64,000 nucleotides of DNA, taken from positions 148,487 to 212,486 of the forward strand of contig JBAZMW010000002.1 in the NCBI GenBank assembly GCA_041649575.1, given 5' to 3'. Made by a program: the position numbers and the translations under genes. The notes under the pieces are model-generated. The model was given only the letters and a program-made list of their open reading frames with translations. It did no database searches and was not told the origin of the DNA. Origin of the DNA: Patescibacteria group bacterium (GTDB lineage Bacteria; Patescibacteriota; Patescibacteriia; 2-01-FULL-39-33). Positions 8,183 to 41,259 of the stretch are shown in pieces (within the stretch, counting starts at the first letter, position 1; every line of letters begins with the position of its first letter).

Positions 8183-8284
8183 AATATATCTTTCTCCAGA
8201 GAGAATGATTCATAGTCCACTTGTGGTGGAAGATGATTGCACAAAAGACAAGGGAACAGGAACCCAAGAAGGAGGCTGTACGTC

Positions 8285-9106
8285 ATGATTAAAAGAACCG
8301 TCGTGGGGCGACTTTTCCGTGATTCTGGCGCATTCGGCCAGTTGACGCCGCCGCCCGGTCTGGAGGGAACCATTGGTGATCCCGATTGGGATTTCTTCTC
8401 GAAGCTGCCGCCGCGTTTTGATTTTCTGGAACTCTGCGATCGGGTCGGCCACGCTTTTGAGATGTCCGAGTCACCCATCTCGCCCTCCGACTGGGAGGAC
8501 CAGTTCGAAAGTCAGAAGGAGCGGCTGCTCGCTCTGTCCGGCTGCTCTGATGGCCATGGCATCGTGCTTTTGCCCGGCCTATTGCCAGTGGCTCCCGGTG
8601 ATTGTATCAGGAAGAGCCTTTTCAATGTCTACATCCCGGCGGTAGAACGCGGCTACGGGGCGATCTATCCCAAGAGGGCTTTTGAGGATTGGTGTGATGG
8701 TCGGGCGGACAGTGTCGCGGCTTTTCCCGGAGTGGGCCACGAGCATCTAATCCACCTCGCCAGTAAAGGCTTGGTCGCCGTCTTCGTCTACATCGCCCAT
8801 TGTATGCGGGCGTGGCCCGTCTCGACCCAGCGCCGACTGCCACGGAAGTTGTTCAAATCGAATTTCTCCTTGGCCGGCGGCTGTGACACGCTTTCCGTCC
8901 TGTCTCTGCACCCTGATATTCTCGCCGCTGGTTTCTGTAGCCCGACGATCGAGCTCAGTGCCTTGCAGACAGATTCGCCGCGCCTCTCGATCTGCGTGGT
9001 GCCAGAAGACAAACGCCTCAGACTCGACATCTGGGGTAATCCCGACGATTTCGCGCCTGAAGCTTCAGGAGGGCTTTCGTTCTGGAAGGAGCAACCTGTC
9101 TTCTAG
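8285..9106 (+). CDS. GC-rich orphan protein, 273 aa, no recognised domain
   Basis: ATG at 8285 has AAGGAGG 9 nt upstream. The long open frame is in GC-rich DNA where other frames are also open, so the frame choice rests on the SD and on length. Confidence 0.6.
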   Translation: MIKRTVVGRLFRDSGAFGQLTPPPGLEGTIGDPDWDFFSKLPPRFDFLELCDRVGHAFEMSESPISPSDWEDQFESQKERLLALSGCSDGHGIVLLPGLLPVAPGDCIRKSLFNVYIPAVERGYGAIYPKRAFEDWCDGRADSVAAFPGVGHEHLIHLASKGLVAVFVYIAHCMRAWPVSTQRRLPRKLFKSNFSLAGGCDTLSVLSLHPDILAAGFCSPTIELSALQTDSPRLSICVVPEDKRLRLDIWGNPDDFAPEASGGLSFWKEQPVF

Positions 9107-9195
9107 CTGGCGCGCCTTAGCCGGCTGCCGGAGTTCTCTAATTGGGGCTAGTGATCATACCAATCACCGGCCTCTGTTTTTTGTTTTAAGCGTAG

Positions 9196-9224
9196 TTGAC
9201 ATTGATAATGAAAACCCTTAAGAT
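9196..9224 (+). promoter_or_regulatory. Promoter: TTGACA, 17-nt spacer, TAAGAT(AAT)
   Basis: TTGACA at 9196-9201 and TAAGAT at 9219-9224. Confidence 0.55.
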
Positions 9225-9277
9225 AATCTTTCGATCTTTCAAGTTAAACTAGTAAGGCAACCATGGAGGGAGCTGCC

Positions 9278-10015
9278 ATGTTTCTGGTATTATTTTCCAT
9301 TCTGGTCTACCCAGTGGCCTTTGTCACCTTCGTCGTTTGCGCCTCAATCTACCTGGCGTTTGTCTTTGTCTTCAAGTCGCTGGGCTGGGAGCTGCAGTAC
9401 CTGGGGCCGTTGGTTCGGTTTCTGGCTCGCGTGATTCTCTTGAGTTGTGGCCAATGGCTCAAGGTTGGGGGCAACTGGCCCTCTCCGACTATCGGGCCTT
9501 GCATCTTTCTCTTCAACCACAGCTCTATCCTGGATGCTCTGGTGGCTGGCGCGGTGCTAAAAGGACGGTTCACTGGCGTGGCTGCCCAGGAGTATTTCTT
9601 TTGGCCGCTGTGGGGAACCATTATGCGCTGGCACAATATCATTCCCATCAAGCGCAAGTGCCACGACGAGGCCATAGAGAGCATGCGGCGGGCGGAAGAG
9701 GCGATAAAAAACGGCTGGTCAATAGGCGGCTTTCCCGAGGGCACCAGAAGCAAGACAGGAGAGTTGCAGCCGTTCAAAAAGGGCCTTTTCTATGTGGCCA
9801 AGGCCACGGGCGCGCCGATCGTGGTGATAGCCATCAAGGGGGCGTACCGTGCCAAGAGTCGCGTCGGTTGGTGTGTTCGGCCGGGAGTGATAACGGCCAC
9901 TATCGGCAAACCCTGGACCCTGTGGTCTAACGGAAAGCAACGGTATGCGGCCTTGTCGGTGGAAGAGTTAAGGCAACTGGCCGAAGGGCTCATGGCAACC
10001 ATGCTCGAAAGTTGA
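9278..10015 (+). CDS. plsC: 1-acyl-sn-glycerol-3-phosphate acyltransferase-like (PlsC/LPLAT family), GC-rich
   Basis: NHSSILD (H-x4-D) and FPEGTRS motifs. ATG at 9278 is preceded by GGAGGGAG; an alternative in-frame ATG is at 9263. Confidence 0.8.
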   Translation: MFLVLFSILVYPVAFVTFVVCASIYLAFVFVFKSLGWELQYLGPLVRFLARVILLSCGQWLKVGGNWPSPTIGPCIFLFNHSSILDALVAGAVLKGRFTGVAAQEYFFWPLWGTIMRWHNIIPIKRKCHDEAIESMRRAEEAIKNGWSIGGFPEGTRSKTGELQPFKKGLFYVAKATGAPIVVIAIKGAYRAKSRVGWCVRPGVITATIGKPWTLWSNGKQRYAALSVEELRQLAEGLMATMLES

Positions 10016-12018: not shown

Positions 12019-12174
12019 TGCGAGCGCATGAAAATTTAGCAACAAAACAGGCGGAGTTCGAGCGTAAATTTTAATTTGTTTGAGCAAAAGCCACCAGTAA
12101 ACTGGTGGCTTTTGCGAGTTATTAAAATTAGCGAGAACAACCCTGTTTTGTCTAAATTTTCATTTAGCTCGCGC
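12019..12174. repeat. Long imperfect palindrome, copy L1 (~156 nt, MITE-like or structured RNA)
   Basis: Arms GCGAGCGCATGAAAATTTAGCAACAAAACAGG... and ...CCTGTTTTGTCTAAATTTTCATTTAGCTCGCGC, centred on CCACCAGTAAACTGGTGG (12091-12108). Confidence 0.75.
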
Positions 12175-12185
12175 TTTTTTCTTTT

Positions 12186-12226
12186 GTGTCAGCTTTTCTT
12201 TTTACTAAAAAAAGAAAAGCTGACAC
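12186..12226. repeat. A/T-rich perfect hairpin H1 (GTGTCAGCTTTTCTTTTT...AAAAAGAAAAGCTGACAC)
   Basis: Perfect inverted repeat. Related left arms occur at 22159 and 24649. Confidence 0.7.
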
Positions 12227-12252
12227 AAAAAAAGAGTATATTTAATAAACTA

Positions 12253-12357: not shown

Positions 12358-12714
12358 ATGAGTCAAAAGACTGGCATACTATTGCTGCTGTTGCGGCCGA
12401 AAGACGGAGCGGCCGTCTTCTTGGACTGGACCCAGAACGCCCTCTTCATGCTGGAGAGCGCGAGTGCCACAGGCGTTTCGCCGTTGGCCGAGAGGGAAGA
12501 TCTGGCCAAGTGTATGAAGGGTTACGAGCTGTGTCCCGCGCTTGGCTACGGCCTATGCGCCAGGTGCCCTATGTCAGTCACCGGCGGTGCTCTCTGTAAT
12601 TTCTGGGCTTCCCAGGGATTCGCCCGCGTGCTCGACGCGCGCACAGAAGAGGAGGCGACCTTTGCCGATCTCGATGCCATGCGCGCCGCGCTCACCGCTT
12701 CCATTACCGGCTGA
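12358..12714 (+). CDS. GC-rich orphan protein, 118 aa
   Basis: AAGGAG SD 9 nt upstream of the ATG. Contains CARCP and other Cys residues. No recognised domain. Confidence 0.55.
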   Translation: MSQKTGILLLLLRPKDGAAVFLDWTQNALFMLESASATGVSPLAEREDLAKCMKGYELCPALGYGLCARCPMSVTGGALCNFWASQGFARVLDARTEEEATFADLDAMRAALTASITG

Positions 12715-12729
12715 AAGGAGAACACGGAC

Positions 12730-13107
12730 ATGCCAACGGTACAAGTGGCCGCGATAAATCTGCCGGCTGGCGCCTTCCTTTTCTTCTATCCGGAACACGC
12801 CACCCCCCAGTACCTTCTGTACAAGAATATCTGGCTGGGACAGACGATGTTCAGGCAGAAGCTAAACGAAGACGAACTTCAGGCTCTCCTCGCCGCCGGT
12901 CGAAATGGGTGGGAGGAAGTGGGCGAGGTGACTCGACGAGAGTTGCAGGCCGCGGATCTCTCTGGACTGGTTCGCAATCTCAAGACCAGGTGCGTCTGGC
13001 CCGAGAATGCGACCGCGTCAATCGCTGTCAGTCCTGACTGCAGCGGACGATGCTCGGAGTGTCGCGGGTGCTATAGCGACATGGAGCCAGTCACAGTAGA
13101 GCGATAG
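12730..13107 (+). CDS. GC-rich orphan protein, 125 aa, with a C-terminal Cys cluster
   Basis: AAGGAG SD 9 nt upstream. C-terminal CSGRCSECRGC (C-x3-C-x2-C-x2-C). Confidence 0.55.
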   Translation: MPTVQVAAINLPAGAFLFFYPEHATPQYLLYKNIWLGQTMFRQKLNEDELQALLAAGRNGWEEVGEVTRRELQAADLSGLVRNLKTRCVWPENATASIAVSPDCSGRCSECRGCYSDMEPVTVER

Positions 13108-20532: not shown

Positions 20533-20709
20533 CGAGTGTTTTTAGATAATTTTTTTGAATAATATTAAAACTTTTGTTATTGTGGATAATTTTTGGTATT
20601 TTCATTTGACATACAATAAAAAAAATTTTATATTTTAAAATTATAATGATTATTATAATTTTATTTTGTTTAAATTTAGCTAAATTATTGGTATTTTAAA
20701 AAAATTACT

Positions 20710-20738
20710 ATTGACAAATATTTATCTATATGATATAA
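20710..20738 (+). promoter_or_regulatory. Promoter: TTGACA, 17-nt spacer, TATAAT
   Basis: TTGACA at 20710-20715 and TATAAT at 20733-20738, at the downstream end of a very A+T-rich ~230-bp spacer. Confidence 0.55.
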
Positions 20739-20744
20739 TTATAA

Positions 20745-21314
20745 TTGTAAAAAGATAAATAAGATATTTTTCGAATCTCCTTGCTCATGGCGTTACGCCA
20801 GTTATCTGGATGTATCGCCATTGACAAGGGTCTTTGAAAGGCGTTAGAACTATAATTTAGAGGAGGATGGCGCTTTATACGCTGCCAGTCCTGGCTTCAA
20901 GATAACTTCTTGAGGCGAGGCGGCCGGCTAAGCGCCCTGGGAAATCAGGTCACAAAATATAATTTTGCGGGCCGTACGATTCTCCCGCCAATCACCCTCT
21001 AATAATTGTTCTAAAAAATCAGGCGGGGATCTTGTCCCTGCCGCGATGCGAAGGAAGCCAGTGCCCGTAAATCTGCGCCTGTTTGGCGCAGATCAGGGCA
21101 GTCAGAAAAAGTTCGGCAAGTAGCAAAACAAACATCTTTACCGTGGCCGGCAACTTTTTCTCAAGTTTTATTCGTATCGTGGCAGAGGTAAGCGGCCACT
21201 GCCCTCTCCTTGGTGGCAAGCCGGTTTGGTTTGTATGACCGACCGGCTTGCCTCTCTACTTTAGTCAACAAGATTTGTTGACTGGGGCAGGGAAGTCAAC
21301 GAGGAGGGCGAGTC
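20745..21314 (+). other. GC-rich, hairpin-dense ~570-nt untranslated region (long leader or independent RNA)
   Basis: I found no SD-preceded ORF on the plus strand. Perfect hairpins at 21071-21093 (9 bp), 21215-21252 (11 bp) and 21264-21282 (8 bp). Confidence 0.4.
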
Positions 21315-21503
21315 ATGATTGTACAATGTTGTAAGTGCCTTCGCGTACGCGAAGGTACACAAGGTAGTGAGTGGAGCCAGGAGCCCGGAGAACGTTTGAC
21401 TGAAACAGACGTCTCCCATGGGTACTGCCCCGCTTGCACCGAGAAGGCGTTGGCAGAAGTACGCCAACACCATGGACAGAAGGAGGATACGCGGACCGAA
21501 TAG
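21315..21503 (+). CDS. Small zinc-ribbon-like protein, 62 aa (CxxC ... SHGYCPAC)
   Basis: GGAGGG SD 6 nt upstream. Sequence begins MIVQCCKCLRVREG...W...SHGYCPACTEKAL. Confidence 0.6.
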   Translation: MIVQCCKCLRVREGTQGSEWSQEPGERLTETDVSHGYCPACTEKALAEVRQHHGQKEDTRTE

Positions 21504-21520
21504 GACCGCGTTTTAATTTT
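21489..21520 (+). terminator. Intrinsic terminator overlapping the stop codon
   Basis: ACGCGG / CCGCGT stem followed by TTTTAATTTT. Confidence 0.5.
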
Positions 21521-21776
21521 CTCAAAAATTATCAATAAATTTTTAAAGCACTCTTGACAACATCTTGTTTTTGATTTTTTTTCTGTGTTATAATTTTTTT
21601 GCAGGGAAGGATTATCACTCGTCATATTACCAGTTACACTTTAAACTCTCTCCCCTTAGTGTGGCCTGGCAATATCCAGAGTGCCTTCTCTAAATCCCGC
21701 CTTTACGGCGGGATTTATATTTTTTATTTTGTTAGTGTTTTATTTTGTGTTATAATAAGCCCATAAAAGGAGCGTT

Positions 21777-22158: not shown

Positions 22159-22224
22159 CTGTTGTCACCTTTCTTTTTTTAGAAAATTATTTTTAATGCC
22201 GCTTCTTTTCTAAAAAGAAGCGGC
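22159..22224. repeat. H-type element remnant plus a terminator-like hairpin
   Basis: GTTGTCACCTTTCTTTTTTTAG matches the left arm of the element at 24649. It is followed by GCCGCTTCTTTT / AAAAGAAGCGGC. Confidence 0.55.
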
Positions 22225-22410
22225 AGAAGAAAATCGCAGCTATTGTAAAATCCAGACAAAATTAGGTGAGTTTTCGCTAAGGCCATTAACTCCCCGCTCA
22301 GGCGCTAGCGCGCTGAGCGGGTCAAACATAATGGCCTTTGGCCTGCGGCCACCGCTCAAACTCCCAGCCAATTTTGTTCCTGGATTTTCCAGCGCTGCCT
22401 TTTTTGATCT
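22225..22410. repeat. Long imperfect palindrome, copy L2
   Basis: AAAATCCAGACAAAATTAGG... pairs with ...CCAATTTTGTTCCTGGATTTT. Centre is CCCCGCTCAGGCGCTAGCGCGCTGAGCGGG. TTTTCATAGGCTCGC follows at 22414-22428. Confidence 0.7.
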
Positions 22411-22454
22411 GCTTTTCATAGGCTCGCCGTAATGATTTAAATAGGACAATAACG

Positions 22455-22484
22455 TTGACTAAAGCAGCGCAAAAAGGTTATAAT
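22455..22484 (+). promoter_or_regulatory. pheS promoter: TTGACT, 18-nt spacer, TATAAT
   Basis: The -10 ends at 22484 and the ATG is at 22494, so the mRNA is leaderless or nearly so. The track's TTG start at 22455 is the -35 hexamer itself. Confidence 0.6.
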
Positions 22485-22493
22485 ATTTTTATT

Positions 22494-23543
22494 ATGAAAG
22501 AAAAGCTCAAGCAGTTAAAAATCGAATTTTTTGAGGCGATCAAGAAAATAAAAACCGCCTCTGATTTGGAAAATTTAGAAAATAAATTTTTGAGCCGTAA
22601 AAACGGCTTGCTCACCAATCTAATGAAAGGCCTGAAAGAGGTGGCGCGTGAAGAGGTGGCGGAGATCGGCCAATTAGCTAATGAGGTAAAAATCCAAATC
22701 ACCGATGAATTAGAGGGCCTCAAAAGCAAGCTTTCCGACCAGAGAGTCGGTGATTTTGATTTTTCTCTGCCGGGCGAGATGCCGCCCATTGGTCATTTGC
22801 ATTTGGTCACCGAGGCCATTCGCGAAATCGCTTCGATTTTTGAGGGTGTCGGCTTCCAGCGGGTCAGCTATCCGGAGGTAGAGTGGGATTATTATGCTTT
22901 TGAGGCCCTAAACATGCCCTCTGATCATCCAGCCCGCGATGAGTGGGAAACGTTTTTTATCGACCGTGAAGCTGTCAGCAAAAAGTATGGTAAGAGGATT
23001 TTGACGCCCCATACCTCTAACGCCCAGGTGCGGGAAATGGAAAAAGGCAGGTTGCCAATCCGCATGATGAATATCTCCAAAACCTATCGCCGGCAGATAG
23101 ACATTTCTCATACCCCCATGTTTCATCAGTTCGAAGGCTTGGTGATTGATAAGGATATCAATATCACTCATCTCAAAGGCACGATCGATTACTTTGTTAA
23201 GAAATTTTTTGGAGCCGACAGGACAATTCGCCTAAGGCCGCATCATTTTCAATTCACCGAGCCGAGTTTTGAAGTGGATATTTCTTGCGGCTTGTGCCAC
23301 GGTACCGGCAAGTTGGTGGATGGCTCGGCGTGTCGTATGTGCAAAGAGGGTTGGCTGGAGCTGGCTGGCGCTGGCATGGTGCATCCCAATGTCTTGAAAT
23401 TTGGCGGTATCGACTCGGGCAAATACAGCGGTTTTGCTTTTGGCTGGGGCGTGGAGCGGTGTTATACCATGAAAGCAGGATTAAACATCGATGATATTCG
23501 ACTGTTGTATAAGAATGATTTGCGGTTCAATACGCAGTTTTAA
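22494..23543 (+). CDS. pheS: Phenylalanine--tRNA ligase alpha subunit
   Basis: HPARDEWETFF, FRLRPHHFQFTEPS and GFAFGWGVER. Confidence 0.92.
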   Translation: MKEKLKQLKIEFFEAIKKIKTASDLENLENKFLSRKNGLLTNLMKGLKEVAREEVAEIGQLANEVKIQITDELEGLKSKLSDQRVGDFDFSLPGEMPPIGHLHLVTEAIREIASIFEGVGFQRVSYPEVEWDYYAFEALNMPSDHPARDEWETFFIDREAVSKKYGKRILTPHTSNAQVREMEKGRLPIRMMNISKTYRRQIDISHTPMFHQFEGLVIDKDINITHLKGTIDYFVKKFFGADRTIRLRPHHFQFTEPSFEVDISCGLCHGTGKLVDGSACRMCKEGWLELAGAGMVHPNVLKFGGIDSGKYSGFAFGWGVERCYTMKAGLNIDDIRLLYKNDLRFNTQF

Positions 23544-23569
23544 TAAATTTATAAATAAGGCTGGTTTTC

Positions 23570-24649
23570 ATGAATTATATTAAACAACCAATTGGCTACA
23601 TTAAAGCAGAGGGTTCTGGTCCTGATATAGTGGGTTCGGCTATTCGTATTTTAAAAGAAGTCGAAAAAAAGATGGATGTAAGATTTAAACTAATAGAGTA
23701 TAAAGGCCAAGCGCCAGCACTGAAATATACCACTAAATCATTTACTGAACTAAAAAATTTTTATAAAAGAATTCGAGAAAGAAAGGGATGTATTATTCGT
23801 GGAGGAATTTACGCTAGACAGGTTTATAGATTGCGACACGATTTTAGGCTGACATATAAACCAATCTTAATCAACCCCATACCGGAATTGTTTGAAAATT
23901 CTCCTTTTAAGGCAGCCTTTGCCAAAAAAATAAACTTATTAATAGCCAGAGAAAACGCGCAAGGGCTATTGGTTTCCAAAGAGATATTAAAGAAAACAAA
24001 AACTAACGAGATATTTGAGGGAAAATTTTTTTACGACAAAAATCTTTGCCGAAAGTTTATAGAAATGTGCTATCAGGCCGCTAGTAAAAGGAAGAAAAAA
24101 ATCATGTTTTTAATTAAGGGTGATGTTTGGAGTCGTCAGAGTTTTGGTGGTATGTGGTTTAGTTTATGGAAGGAGGTTGGAAAAAAATATCCAGAAGTGG
24201 AATTTGATTGGGAACACGACGACACTTGGCTTGGCTATTTTATGAATCATCCAGAAAAATATGATATGGTAGTAGCTTTGGGCATTAGTGGCGATTTAAT
24301 TACCGATCCGATTGCCACTTTAGCTTATGGCACCAGAGCAATTACTCCTAGCGCTAACATTGCTCCAGACGGTTTTATGACTGTTCAAACCATTCATGGC
24401 GCCGGAACCGGTATACCAAAAGGTAAGGCCAATCCCATCGCCATGATTAGAGGCATTGGTCTATTGATGGAATATTTTTTTGAAATGCCAGAGATGAAAA
24501 ATCTTATCGATCTATCTATAAGAAAGGTACTGGCCAGAGGATATAGAACAATAGATATTTATCTTAGTAATAATCCCAAACACAAATTGATCGGCTGTAA
24601 AGAAATGACCAGCTTAATAGTAGAAGAGATGCAAAAACTAACCAGTTAA
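23570..24649 (+). CDS. Divergent isocitrate/isopropylmalate dehydrogenase-family (beta-decarboxylating dehydrogenase-like) protein, low GC
   Basis: ARENAQGL and GDLITDPIATLAYGTRAITPSANI....QTIHGAGTGIPKGKANPIAMI resemble the Iso_dh family pattern. Visibly more A+T-rich than pheS and pheT. Confidence 0.55.
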   Translation: MNYIKQPIGYIKAEGSGPDIVGSAIRILKEVEKKMDVRFKLIEYKGQAPALKYTTKSFTELKNFYKRIRERKGCIIRGGIYARQVYRLRHDFRLTYKPILINPIPELFENSPFKAAFAKKINLLIARENAQGLLVSKEILKKTKTNEIFEGKFFYDKNLCRKFIEMCYQAASKRKKKIMFLIKGDVWSRQSFGGMWFSLWKEVGKKYPEVEFDWEHDDTWLGYFMNHPEKYDMVVALGISGDLITDPIATLAYGTRAITPSANIAPDGFMTVQTIHGAGTGIPKGKANPIAMIRGIGLLMEYFFEMPEMKNLIDLSIRKVLARGYRTIDIYLSNNPKHKLIGCKEMTSLIVEEMQKLTS

Positions 24650-24690
24650 GTTGTCACTTTTCTTTTTTTAGTAAAAAGAAAAGCTGACGC
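24649..24690. repeat. A/T-rich hairpin H3, same family as 12186-12226
   Basis: GTTGTCACTTTTCTTTTTTTAGTAAAAAGAAAAGCTGACGC. Confidence 0.65.
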
Positions 24691-24701
24691 AAAAGAAAAA
24701 A

Positions 24702-24842
24702 GCGCGATCTAATGAAAATTTGGCGCTTTAAGTCAAAATCCTAACAAAATTTTTAAACTCGCTTCGCCTACGGCTCGCTCAAACAGTAAAAATTTAGTAA
24801 CGGATTTTGCCTTACGCTTATTCCAAATTTTCATAGGCTCGC
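24702..24842. repeat. Long imperfect palindrome, copy L3
   Basis: GCGCGATCTAATGAAAATTTGG... pairs with ...CCAAATTTTCATAGGCTCGC. Confidence 0.7.
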
Positions 24843-24853
24843 ATTGTAAAAAA

Positions 24854-25345
24854 ATGAGAAGAATTAATAAAAATACATTGAAATGGATAATAGGAACGAT
24901 AATCGTACCTATTATTATAGCTGTAATAATGGTTAGTAATCAAGTACAGCAAAGCATAACTAATAGTGACAATTCTATTATGGCTGGTATAAATATTGCT
25001 AAAACCACTGGTGACAATAGTCCAGCCGTGGTTGGTGATAATAATAATTTTGAATACCATGTTAGTACTACAAGCACGCCTCAAAGACATGTTGATCAAA
25101 AGGTTATCGATTATTTAAATAGAGAAATACCCAAAGATGATCAAATAAAAATATTTATTGGGGCTGTTGCTCTTGATTCGGAAGCGTATATTTTTGCACA
25201 AGAAATATTTCATTATTTAACTGGTAAGTATAAAAATGTATATGGCATTGAATCTTTGGTGAATGATAATATGTCCCCAGGAATTCATATACACAAAAAG
25301 TTACAAGAAAAAAATATTTATATTGATATTCAAACTCATGAATAA
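24854..25345 (+). CDS. Hypothetical membrane-anchored protein, very low GC
   Basis: One N-terminal TM helix. No recognised motif. This looks like the most A+T-rich coding region in the window. Confidence 0.55.
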   Translation: MRRINKNTLKWIIGTIIVPIIIAVIMVSNQVQQSITNSDNSIMAGINIAKTTGDNSPAVVGDNNNFEYHVSTTSTPQRHVDQKVIDYLNREIPKDDQIKIFIGAVALDSEAYIFAQEIFHYLTGKYKNVYGIESLVNDNMSPGIHIHKKLQEKNIYIDIQTHE

Positions 25346-25389
25346 TATAAAATACAGCCCTGTTTTGATAAAAATAGATTAAATAAAAT

Positions 25390-34002: not shown

Positions 34003-34968
34003 ATGAAGAAATCAAATCTGCCTATTCTCAGTCAGTTTTCGGACTTTCTGGCCTATTGCGAGGTAGAAAAAGGTCTTAGCCCCATTTCTACCAGAAATTA
34101 CCACAATTTTTTGAGAATGTTCGAAGGTTGGCTAAAAATCAAACATTTAACGCAGCTCAAGCCGCATGAGCTCACTCCAGAGCATGTCTGGGACTACCGG
34201 CTTTATCTTTCCCGTCGGCAAGACCGCTCTGGTCGCTATATCAAAAAAACCACTCAAAATTATTATTTAATCGCCCTTAGGAACCTTTTGAACTACTTCG
34301 CCGATAAAGATATTATCTCTTTGCCTTCAGAAAAAGTTAAATTACCAAAATTAACCGAAAAAGACAAAGCGATAAAGTTTCTAAAGTTTGATCAGATAGA
34401 AAAGTTATTACAGGTGCCGGATGTCACCACTCTTGAAGGCCTAAGGGACAGAACGATTCTCGAAATTCTCTTCTCTACTGGTATGCGGGTTTCGGAGTTA
34501 ACGTCGCTTAATATCAAACAGTTTGATCGCCTAGCTTTACTAAAAAATAATTTTTCTGATCAAGAGTTAAGCATCGCTGGTAAAGGTGGTAGAACAAGAA
34601 CGGTTTATTTTTCTCATCGAGCTTTGGGTTGGCTGGCTAGATACTTAAAAAACAGAAACGACCTCTATCCCCCGCTTTTTATTAACTATCGTCCCCATAA
34701 TGACAGAGATGACGAGCACCGTTTAACGCCTCGTTCGGTTGAAAGATTGGTAAAAAGACACACCGTGATGGCCGGGTTGCCTGTTGATGCCACGCCGCAC
34801 ACCCTGCGTCATAGCTATGCCACGGATTTATTGGATCAGGGAGCAGATTTGCGCAGTGTCCAGGAGCTTTTGGGGCATAAAAATATTGTTACCACTCAAA
34901 TTTATACTCACGTCACCAATCAAAAGCTTCGCTCCATTCATAAAAAATTTCATAGTGGCAATCATTGA
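34003..34968 (+). CDS. xerC: Tyrosine recombinase XerC/XerD family
   Basis: TPHTLRHSYATDLLDQGADLRSVQELLGHKNIVTTQIYTHV. Confidence 0.88.
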   Translation: MKKSNLPILSQFSDFLAYCEVEKGLSPISTRNYHNFLRMFEGWLKIKHLTQLKPHELTPEHVWDYRLYLSRRQDRSGRYIKKTTQNYYLIALRNLLNYFADKDIISLPSEKVKLPKLTEKDKAIKFLKFDQIEKLLQVPDVTTLEGLRDRTILEILFSTGMRVSELTSLNIKQFDRLALLKNNFSDQELSIAGKGGRTRTVYFSHRALGWLARYLKNRNDLYPPLFINYRPHNDRDDEHRLTPRSVERLVKRHTVMAGLPVDATPHTLRHSYATDLLDQGADLRSVQELLGHKNIVTTQIYTHVTNQKLRSIHKKFHSGNH

Positions 34969-40622: not shown

Positions 40623-40767
40623 AAAAAATTTAGTTATCCACAGGTACTATTTATTTCTTTAAAAAATAGTTATATAATGAAAGTGCGGAAGGTATTTACG
40701 ATAGCGTACAACCGAAGCAGGCCATCGGCCAAACGATCGGCCAAACGAAAGAAAGGTGGGACGGAAG

Positions 40768-41259
40768 ATGAGAAAGTTCGTGTTTTGTACGGTAGTACTG
40801 GCGTTCGCGTTTGTGATGATTCCGGCGACGAATACTCCGGCATACGCGACGCAACTCGATCAAGGCAAGGCAGTGGCGACGGCTCCGACGACGATGGGGA
40901 CGACGCAGCAGGACGTGCAGACGGCGATGAAGAGCAACCTGGTCCTCGACGGCACCGGGCAGAAAGTCGCTGAAGTGATGAAGGCGCCGACTCTTGACTC
41001 CGGACGAGTGATTGCGCAGACGGCGACGACGAAGACGGCACGCGAAGAGCAGACGAAGATCACGGCGAAGAGTGACACGGTTGTAACGGCGAAGATCGAA
41101 GCGCAAGGCATGGGCGAGCAGATGGCAGCGGCTGGCGAAGATGACGCTGGCACGATCATCGTGGCGACGAAGAGTGACACCTATGCGACGAGAATCGAGG
41201 GCCGTATCGCTCACGACGCGGACGCGACCTTCAATGCGAACGTTCTGATCATCGGCTAA
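40768..41259 (+). CDS. GC-rich secreted Thr/Ala-rich protein, 163 aa
   Basis: AAGGTGGG SD. Signal peptide MRKFVFCTVVLAFAFVMIPATNTPAYA. Internal repeat CGAAGAGTGACAC at about 41069 and 41168. Confidence 0.6.
   Translation: MRKFVFCTVVLAFAFVMIPATNTPAYATQLDQGKAVATAPTTMGTTQQDVQTAMKSNLVLDGTGQKVAEVMKAPTLDSGRVIAQTATTKTAREEQTKITAKSDTVVTAKIEAQGMGEQMAAAGEDDAGTIIVATKSDTYATRIEGRIAHDADATFNANVLIIG

Follow-up and report, generated by a model that had tools for sequence, protein, structure and literature searches.

Chromosomal integration hot spots—the hypervariable islets that lie between core genes—are a familiar concept in the comparative genomics of horizontal gene transfer. Conserved core genes form their flanks, the cargo between these flanks varies and is low in GC, orphan genes (ORFans) stand there beside genes of defense or mobility type, and no integrase need be adjacent. 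In this paper, we describe a locus that shares each of these traits: the 1,846 bp (23544-25389) that separate pheS from pheT, the genes for the two subunits of phenylalanyl-tRNA synthetase (PheRS), in a window of 64,000 nucleotides (the whole stretch of DNA that we analyzed, part of the 235-kb Patescibacteria contig k141_2894300 of ENA ERZ27247363). Those 1,846 bp hold a gene of the Iso_dh family, a hairpin, a long imperfect palindrome and an ORFan. The locus differs from described hot spots in where it sits, between two genes that elsewhere make up an operon of their own and encode both subunits of one enzyme, and in its order: the cargo found at this junction is co-oriented in 51 of 51 open reading frames (ORFs), and a module of hairpin plus palindrome recurs in the three closest lineages.

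What fills this gap, and how did it come to be there? We think it probable that pheS and pheT enclose a slot that holds a native structured module, a strain-specific ORFan and a horizontally acquired Iso_dh gene. Islands of horizontally transferred genes have been reported in Patescibacteria (PMC12455944), and with moderate confidence, we place the event among known kinds, as a horizontal acquisition into an operon-embedded hot spot. What is unusual is that the gene belongs to a cross-domain clade without the catalytic tyrosine of its family and that strictly co-oriented cargo lies by a conserved palindrome.

The Iso_dh gene is a lineage-specific, compositionally foreign insertion of a single gene. 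Aligned with its closest relatives (the loci L007 and L091), the window has 1,106 bp of extra DNA on the + strand (23544..24649), which consist of a 26-nt leader and the Iso_dh ORF, have no 3' untranslated region (UTR) and are bounded cleanly by the pheS stop codon at one end and the hairpin at the other. The gene itself (23570..24649, + strand; 359 aa) matches PF00180 at 132.6 bits against a cut-off of 27, and the native hairpin element opens directly after its stop with the 5' end GTTGTCAC..., a motif that recurs as GTTGTCAC-TTTC at 22161-22182. Upstream stands pheS (22494..23543, + strand; PheRS alpha subunit, Pfam PF01409 and PF02912); downstream follow the hairpin (24652..24690, no strand assigned), the 139-nt imperfect palindrome (24704..24842, likewise), the ORFan (24854..25345, + strand; 163 aa, no family match), whose ATG lies 11 nt past the palindrome, and pheT (25390..27858, + strand; PheRS beta subunit), which has all five Pfam domains (tRNA_bind, B3_4, B5, tRNA_synthFbeta and FDX-ACB). 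All four genes share the + strand, with spacers of 26, 204 and 44 nt in that order. The stretch is therefore composite: a single-gene insertion, a native structured module and a fast-turnover ORFan. The initial annotation of this DNA had taken it for one island, which fails because the hairpin and palindrome are native, standing directly after the pheS stop in L007/L091; its coordinates for the two genes and the 1.8-kb split agree with Pfam and ORF positions, and its word “divergent” suits the Iso_dh gene in sequence but not in transcription, the gene being co-oriented with both pheS and pheT.

The evidence that carries this reading comes from relatives. We compared 160 pheS loci from species-representative genomes and Joint Genome Institute (JGI) metagenomes, in which pheT, the Iso_dh gene and the ORFan were located by tblastn; 126 were left after removal of duplicates, and the nearest relatives by PheS are metagenome-assembled genomes labeled Candidatus Buchananbacteria or Parcubacteria. 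The initial annotation would have been refuted by the same two genes at this junction throughout the lineage with host-like composition; this refutation did not materialize, as tblastn placed neither the Iso_dh gene nor the ORFan between pheS and pheT in any of the 126 non-redundant relatives. At PheS identities of at least 67%, the gap between the two genes exceeds 300 nt in 19 of 28 loci, which we count as occupied (median 517 nt, maximum ~2 kb); below 67%, it does so in 14 of 98 (median ~10 nt). The expectation that pheS and pheT are normally adjacent thus holds for distant relatives and fails within this lineage. Gaps longer than 300 nt almost always have a GC content under that of their pheS/pheT flanks, the usual values being 0.24-0.39 in the gap and 0.41-0.51 in the flanks. 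With a minimum length of 60 aa, the gaps hold 51 ORFs, all on the pheS/pheT strand; these fall into 43 BLASTP families, of which 37 are singletons, and 27 of the 51 ORFs have a transmembrane (TM)-like segment; recognizable cargo comprises two NUDIX proteins, an Mrr restriction enzyme, a GIY-YIG nuclease, a 23S-rRNA-IVS four-helix-bundle protein, an IS200-type transposase, a reverse transcriptase and several peptidases. Nearest to the window, the junction holds a TM ORFan, a NUDIX protein and a lipoprotein in L092 (PheS identity 83%), a multi-TM ORFan in L007/L091 (82%) and a small ORF with the same lipoprotein as L092 in L093 (78%). Because the cargo differs nearly every time, we regard the junction as a standing, lineage-wide slot for co-oriented accessory genes and not as a one-off disruption; the same core flanks around different cargo are the pattern of an integration hot spot.

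Composition points the same way. GC content and GC at third codon positions (GC3) are 0.358 and 0.317 in the Iso_dh gene and 0.291 and 0.189 in the ORFan, against 0.465 and 0.554 in pheS, 0.465 and 0.505 in pheT and a GC of 0.437 for the window. The other 51 genes of the window have a GC3 of 0.486 +/- 0.056, which sets the Iso_dh gene at z = -3.0 and the ORFan at z = -5.3, so that both are, as first claimed, more A+T-rich than pheS and pheT; ranked from the lowest GC3 among the 53 window genes, the ORFan is first and the Iso_dh gene third, and the codon usage of the ORFan is the most deviant in the window. The rest of the locus has a GC of 0.439. At nine other loci with an Iso_dh homologue, the gene (GC 0.31-0.53) lies within 0.05 of its surroundings; the window alone deviates more. 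Of the marks of a classical genomic island, atypical composition and sporadic distribution are present, but neither an integrase or tRNA gene next to the insert nor convincing direct repeats at its flanks: no tRNA gene is near the insert (the sole one in the window lies at 62620-62690), and the nearest recombinase gene (34003-34965) is 8.6 kb away and XerC/D-like: its product scores 101 bits on the integron-integrase model TIGR02249, against a cut-off of 265, and 221 bits on XerD. The only candidate repeats are a 17-nt direct repeat of 88% identity (23568/25336) and an 8-nt CAGTT(TT)AA microhomology at the two junctions, and either could arise by chance in A+T-rich DNA. A phage-borne auxiliary gene was also considered and set aside, since two clade-specific peptide patterns brought up no relative among the IMG/VR viral contigs.

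Where might such a gene have come from? The close clade consists of 19 sequences with 37-76% identity among 5.8 billion proteins, after which identity drops to ~27% for ordinary LeuB; a profile search of 1.84 billion cluster representatives gave ~15 further representatives above ~240 bits. The genomic contexts are archaeal at L005 (Pacearchaeota; neighbors FtsZ, TrmB, HTH_10 and a ThrRS editing domain), L089 (Diapherotrites; Hjc and PTH2) and L090 (single-cell genome AQRS01; geranylgeranyl reductase and TrmB), probably also at L087 and L088, and bacterial in the window, at L003 (Patescibacteria) and at L173, where the neighbors are a GAD-containing AspRS and GatCAB. In a neighbor-joining tree, the window protein falls in an unresolved crown that mixes a Pacearchaeon with a Patescibacterium, and the successive outgroups with a known host are archaeal; bootstrap support is 100% for the crown plus P0012 and 93% for the next node out, with 11-54 for inner nodes. 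The protein tree and contexts suggest an origin in DPANN archaea followed by transfer into bacteria of the candidate phyla radiation (CPR). Exchange between CPR bacteria and DPANN archaea, and physical associations of CPR bacteria with archaea, are documented (PMC12455944, PMC9600506 and PMC10936435).

At two loci of the clade, a gene for an isochorismatase-family cysteine hydrolase overlaps the Iso_dh stop by 4 nt (L172:1342-1932 and L090:6520-7098). The coupled Iso_dh homologues are P0002 in L172, 76% identical to the window protein, and P0017 in L090, 48% identical; the hydrolases themselves share 55% identity and come nearest to RutB and BiuH, under the cut-offs of those models. In some genomes, then, the Iso_dh protein presumably works with a RutB/BiuH-like cysteine amidohydrolase. 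Literature searches brought up nothing relevant on a pairing of Iso_dh with isochorismatase-family proteins or on beta-decarboxylating dehydrogenases without the tyrosine. Other neighbors within the clade are a short-chain dehydrogenase/reductase (SDR; L003 and L004), a Ddl-like ATP-grasp protein (L173) and a LivK-like binding protein (L171).

Unlike the inserted gene, the hairpin and palindrome belong to the host. The closest described systems are repetitive extragenic palindromes (REP), bacterial interspersed mosaic elements (BIME) and repeats like miniature inverted-repeat transposable elements (MITE), with which the module shares several intergenic copies, conserved termini, strong hairpin potential and a place between co-transcribed genes; it differs in being much longer (~140 nt plus a separate 39-nt hairpin), in its positional conservation between genomes (78% identity, with compensatory changes) and in having no Rfam match. 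Both parts are structured elements, as the initial annotation had it. The A/T-rich hairpin (-15 kcal/mol, z = -3.1) has a 15-bp stem, CTTTTCTTTTT/AAAAAGAAAAG, with a GTCAC/CTGAC extension, and because it has no 3' T-run, it is not a canonical intrinsic terminator. The palindrome (-39.8 kcal/mol, z = -4.9, with 0 of 200 shuffles as stable) is built of the nested inverted repeats I3, I21 and I4; it has the termini GCGATCTAATGAAAATTT / AAATTTTCATAGGCTCGC and, farther in, AAACTCG and CTCAAAC on either side of a GC-rich tip hairpin.

The same hairpin and palindrome start 2-3 nt past the pheS stop in L007/L091. Over 201 aligned positions, the two copies are 78% identical in nucleotides, compared with 75% for pheS and 53% at its third codon positions, and the differences in the palindrome arms are partly compensatory (e.g., AAAATCC/GGATTTT against AAAATTC/GAATTTT); another, perfect hairpin takes the place of the GC-rich tip hairpin in L007/L091. 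In L092, the hairpin is accompanied by a palindrome that keeps the GCGAGC...GCTCGC termini and differs in its interior. Orthologous or paralogous copies of the palindrome fold at z = -5.6 to -9.7 against shuffled controls; these folds were computed individually because the MAFFT alignment of the four copies was poor, RNAalifold recovering only 13 outer pairs from it. Within the window itself, a paralogous module lies on the - strand at 12020..12233, downstream of alaS (by Pfam) and in reverse orientation, with 66 nt at 95% identity to 24657-24721, 25-nt arms that are 96% complementary and a palindrome at z = -9.7; it includes an identical 27-mer of the hairpin at 12193-12219, where chance would give 0. 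A third (22161..22430, + strand) stands directly 5' of the pheS promoter and consists of a degenerate hairpin, a hairpin at 22190-22232 and a longer palindrome that ends in TTTTCATAGGCTCGC. With three such modules in 64 kb, imperfect palindromes of roughly 140-200 nt whose termini are conserved within the window (GCGAGC..ATGAAAATTT / AAATTTTCAT..GCTCGC), a variable GC-rich tip hairpin between AAACTCG and CTCAAAC, and four occurrences of the palindrome terminus motif against 0.21 expected, the copies, termini and stable hairpins are those of a REP- or MITE-like family.

The existence of the paralogous module at 12020-12233 marks the hairpin and palindrome as genome-native repeats, and by its sequence, the module is native and inherited from an ancestor common to the closest relatives. 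That L007/L091 and L092 have it at the orthologous place speaks against a recent move of the copy at 24652-24842; no transposase or target-site duplication of the module turned up, in work that included no search aimed at mobility evidence. Because both sequence and pairing are constrained, the module probably has some function. A T-box or another known RNA was ruled out, since Rfam 15, T-box included, gave nothing at gathering score in the region; at E <=1, there was one Enterococcus small RNA model with 23.9 bits against a cut-off of 100.

Two repeat observations belong beside this one. Of the three window modules, two adjoin compositionally atypical genes, which are in one case those of the low-GC stretch between pheS and pheT and in the other the high-GC ORFs at 12358-13107. 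Several relatives moreover have, between their pheS and pheT, a second slot-associated repeat family, GC-rich and palindromic, of the form GTCATTCC(G/C)..CGAAGCGG..GGAATCC (L092:6071-6108; L009:8489-8699, in 3 tandem copies; L013:7096-7150; L019:7106-7140); these GTCATTCC-type repeats read as spurious “SFRP/HSREGGNP”-like peptides in ORF lists.

What would the inserted gene do? Its product matches PF00180 from end to end, residues 8-349 aligning with profile positions 2-347 of 348, and this superfamily membership is also the NCBI name, “isocitrate/isopropylmalate family dehydrogenase.” Below that level, no NCBIfam equivalog reached its cut-off. The LeuB model TIGR00169 scored 112.7 bits against 353.2; the best isocitrate, homoisocitrate and tartrate models scored 89.6 (cut-off 509), 84.4 (500) and 85.1 (501); overall, the best models for isocitrate dehydrogenase (Icd, IDH), homoisocitrate dehydrogenase (HICDH) and tartrate dehydrogenase gave 80-90 bits against cut-offs of about 470-560, and no Icd or HICDH model gave more than 90 against cut-offs of 432-680. 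The genes within +/-10 kb are those for ribosomal proteins, rpoA, a UvrD-family helicase, pheS, pheT, lysS, serS and hypotheticals; no leu genes (leuA, leuCD) or TCA genes are among them. The protein is thus neither the housekeeping LeuB nor Icd, and the initial surprise at finding such a homologue in a CPR genome was justified.

The closest described enzyme is LeuB, the 3-isopropylmalate dehydrogenase (IPMDH) of Thermus thermophilus (PDB 1HEX/2Y41). An AlphaFold2 model built with a family alignment (pLDDT 92.4, pTM 0.90) shows the predicted protein to carry the full IPMDH fold: the top 50 Foldseek matches are all IPMDH-, IDH- or HICDH-type structures at template modeling scores of 0.75-0.85, with IPMDH at ~0.83 and 20-23% identity. 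Shared with LeuB and PF00180 are the full-length fold, the dimer “arm” hairpin, the GxGxGP N-terminal motif and the HG...ANP cofactor loop; what differs is an overall identity of 20-27%, “REN” for “REL,” a 9-residue deletion before the equivalent of R94 and a context without the leucine pathway. We mapped the active site by HMMER alignment to PDB IPMDHs, by family alignments and by pairwise alignment to a T. thermophilus sequence that agrees with the published residue numbering. The catalytic lysine (T. thermophilus K185) is kept as K183, and the metal-binding triad D217, D241 and D245 as D218, D242 and D246. Two of the three arginines for the substrate carboxylate are retained, R132 as R127 and R94 as R89 (by family alignment; a gap-free pairwise alignment pairs R94 with R87), and the third, R104, is a lysine, K97. 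D278, for NAD specificity, is not conserved (G281), and the catalytic tyrosine (Y139, or Tyr160 of Escherichia coli IDH) is a leucine, L134, in an ungapped stretch (ARENAQGLL against VRELTGGLY). The roles of these residues follow PMC9041340, according to which the replaced tyrosine in IDH and IPMDH protonates C3 after decarboxylation.

Is it then an enzyme at all? The leucine stands in 17 of 19 close clade members and in P0060, the tyrosine being kept in the deepest members and the broader subfamily, and this, together with the lost NAD-specificity aspartate, would be compatible with a ligand-binding or regulatory subunit such as the regulatory subunits of eukaryotic NAD-IDH. Those subunits, however, lose metal ligands too, and here, 49 columns are invariant across the clade, among them K183, D218, D242 and D246, the two substrate arginines and the HG...NP cofactor loop, nor does a gene for a catalytic partner lie nearby. 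We therefore hold a pseudo-enzyme to be unlikely. With dN at 0.16-0.22, dS saturated in three of four comparisons and omega at ~0.1 or less, the protein is under purifying selection. Read from its residues, it appears to be a stand-alone Mg/Mn-, NAD(P)-dependent oxidoreductase of 2-hydroxy acids whose substrate is neither isocitrate nor 3-isopropylmalate, and it may oxidize that substrate with the canonical decarboxylation step modified or absent. Loss of the catalytic tyrosine predicts altered chemistry.

One could also suppose that the Iso_dh gene, and perhaps the ORFan, is old at this junction, that it was lost or replaced in the relatives sampled and that its A+T-richness comes from relaxed selection or mutational bias. 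The slot and its hairpin/palindrome module are themselves ancestral, the cargo is A+T-rich in every relative, which fits A+T drift of weakly selected genes, and no mobility signature was found. Such a history, however, needs many independent losses, the gene being absent from all 126 relatives and L092, L007/L091 and L093 holding other cargo; relaxed selection is hard to square with purifying selection and an intact active-site set; the gene has its nearest relatives among archaea and in a Patescibacterium not related to this one, in other contexts; and its homologues fit the GC of their loci everywhere except in the window. We give long residence little credence.

Equally modest is the standing of a cassette-type mobile element, promoterless and integron-like or specific to CPR bacteria, with the palindrome as its recombination site. 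Integrons, cross-domain cassette capture included, are documented in DPANN-group archaea (PMC9668308), and like the cassettes of integrons and of clusters of attC sites lacking integron-integrases (CALINs), archaeal ones among them, the window has promoterless, co-oriented, small and mostly orphan ORFs by an imperfect palindrome and a gene family that crosses domains. The insert amounts to one tight ORF, co-oriented and without a promoter of its own, the slot cargo of relatives is co-oriented as well, and a homologue that is 69% identical (P0007) lies inside an array at L003 with attC-consensus repeat cores. The window differs from integron systems on the decisive points: the R'' RYYYAAC and R' GTTRRRY cores of attC were not seen by eye in 24650-24853 or 25346-25389; no integron integrase is encoded in the 64 kb of the 235-kb contig, the recombinase at 34003-34965 being XerC/D-like and not IntI; one palindrome serves two ORFs; and that palindrome pre-dates the Iso_dh gene, since it is orthologous in relatives without the gene. 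The repeats of L003 occur neither in the window nor at any other locus, and archaeal homologues are embedded without spacers. As an integron cassette proper, the window was rejected for want of cores and IntI and for the age of its palindrome; a cassette of the broader kind we consider rather improbable.

The L003 array deserves a description in its own right. At L003:540-15300 (JGI Ga0265297_10000249), >20 small co-oriented genes, among them P0007 and genes for SDR, SET, Fic, NUDIX and 4HBT proteins, stand between repeats of two types in strict alternation: type A, of ~105-150 nt, ends in ...CAGATACGCTTGTCTGTTAGGCG, and type B, of ~45-70 nt, starts with ...CGCCCAACACCGCGTATCTGG. The head of B is the inverted complement of the tail of A, the cores GCCCAAC and GTTAGGC fit the attC consensus, and the two repeats around a given gene pair further in a way specific to that gene. 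Integron-like or CALIN cassettes in a CPR genome are one possible reading of the array, although the alternation of two site types is not classical.

A bolder proposal joins the enzyme to the repeat. It would have the tyrosine-less clade be a new activity specific to ultra-small episymbionts, CPR bacteria and DPANN archaea alike, and, at once, the hairpin and palindrome mark a gene-capture site of an undescribed sort, integrase-independent or trans-acting. The activity could act on a host-derived hydroxy-acid or amide, as a non-decarboxylating oxidation or a salvage step in concert with the RutB/BiuH-like amidohydrolase, and be carried as a cross-domain single-gene cassette; the capture site may load co-oriented cargo into essential operons for expression from the operon promoter. 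For the two halves to be true together strikes us as a long shot.

Two further readings fall quickly. An assembly or binning chimera, in which low-GC DNA of a co-occurring organism was joined to the contig, might be suspected from the abrupt change in composition at both gene boundaries and from low-GC Pacearchaeota and Patescibacteria with homologues in related samples; it is very improbable, because a separate Logan assembly (L002, SRR8542065) is 100% identical over the pheS 3' end, the Iso_dh gene and 34 nt past its stop into the hairpin, which makes the junctions independent of the assembler, and host sequence resumes within a few bases on both sides (the pheS stop and the host-specific repeated hairpin), with an intact pheT after the ORFan. 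That the gene is the organism's own LeuB or Icd, as its Pfam family, fold and NCBI name might lead one to believe, is hardly credible for a protein far under the LeuB, Icd and HICDH cut-offs, with its catalytic tyrosine gone, no pathway genes around it and a clade of a few dozen proteins among billions.

Our preferred reading, a slot with native module, strain-specific ORFan and horizontally acquired Iso_dh gene, has its own weak points, and we set them out together. No hallmark of mobility flanks the insert (no integrase, attC, tRNA or convincing target-site duplication). Because the closest sampled homologue is only 76% identical, no donor can be named, and because the inner tree is unresolved and many clade contigs are too short to reveal their host, a transfer from archaea into bacteria is the suggested direction and no more. 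In part, low GC could reflect weak selection instead of foreign origin, for the ORFan especially, and it is on composition that the import is called recent. “Hot spot” is meant by comparison with this junction in more distant relatives, not with a genome-wide background. The change of tyrosine to leucine could signify a non-catalytic protein, and the isochorismatase-family partner gene is absent from the window.

With these points in mind, the slot reading would run as follows. The pheS-pheT spacer of this Buchananbacteria-related Patescibacterium would be an operon-embedded slot for accessory genes, a hot spot of gene turnover between core genes, in three layers: the native hairpin and 139-nt palindrome, ancestral and constrained in sequence and structure; the A+T-rich ORFan, a strain-specific, single-pass membrane protein and typical fast-turnover cargo; and the 1,106-bp Iso_dh insert, acquired horizontally and belonging to a rare clade that moves between CPR bacteria and DPANN archaea, with a composition that is probably still that of a donor with ~32-35% GC. 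By default, the insertion would have come about through homologous exchange via the conserved pheS and pheT flanks or through illegitimate recombination beside the hairpin. The cargo being co-oriented, the insert leader tight and a 3' UTR lacking, the inserted genes most likely owe their expression to read-through from the pheS promoter. For that promoter, the scan offers a sigma-70-type candidate, TTGACT-18-TATAAT at 22455-22484, with 11/12 consensus matches; since it ends 9 nt 5' of the pheS ATG, the pheS mRNA would be leaderless or nearly so. The listed pheS ORF starts at TTG 22455; the homologues begin at ATG 22494 instead, and their N-termini match it. The TTG is the start of the -35 hexamer of the promoter-like sequence.

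The ORFan has, as first described, a membrane anchor: a hydrophobic N-terminal TM helix at residues 9-27 (mean of 2.56 in a 19-residue Kyte-Doolittle window), followed by a linker of low complexity, rich in N/S/T/G, and then by ~80 C-terminal aa of alpha/beta type. It is probably a real gene, because by simple arithmetic, 163 open codons in DNA of 29% GC have a chance of ~1e-6. Among 5.8 billion proteins, the only homologue was the identical sequence from the same contig; there was no Pfam or NCBIfam match, and BLASTP against the 51 slot ORFs of relatives gave no link. The single-sequence AlphaFold2 model was poor (pLDDT 58), too poor for a fold search. Import, divergence past recognition from an older slot gene and de novo origin are all conceivable for it. 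A protein of the same class, a 188-aa orphan with an N-terminal TM anchor, is encoded after lysS at 30084-30650 (GC 0.333, GC3 0.307), so that both of these A+T-rich, TM-anchored orphans (24854-25345 and 30084-30650) adjoin aminoacyl-tRNA synthetase genes.

Why should one gene between two others matter? CPR and DPANN metabolism is minimal, and each acquired enzyme is for that reason a clue to what these organisms take up from hosts or surroundings; the Iso_dh gene is of metabolic type and is common almost exclusively to CPR bacteria and DPANN archaea. The locus also indicates that an essential two-subunit aminoacyl-tRNA synthetase operon can host rapid turnover of strictly co-oriented accessory genes, with a conserved structured repeat beside that turnover, which bears on how streamlined genomes remain plastic. 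Horizontal transfer, hot spots and CPR-DPANN exchange were known already, and current views are not overturned.

Some features elsewhere in the window remain to be recorded. Its composition is a mosaic toward high GC as well as low: ORF patches with a GC of 0.57-0.61 lie at 8237-10015, 12358-13107, 32453-32950 and 40696-41214, with no rRNA by Rfam, and an acyltransferase (PF01553) is encoded within the first (9263-10012), the other ORFs of these patches having no Pfam family. Upstream of pheS, the ~1.2 kb at 20533-21776 have no convincing ORF, a GC that ranges from 0.25 to 0.51 and nothing at Rfam gathering score; they could be a divergent noncoding RNA or a decayed gene.

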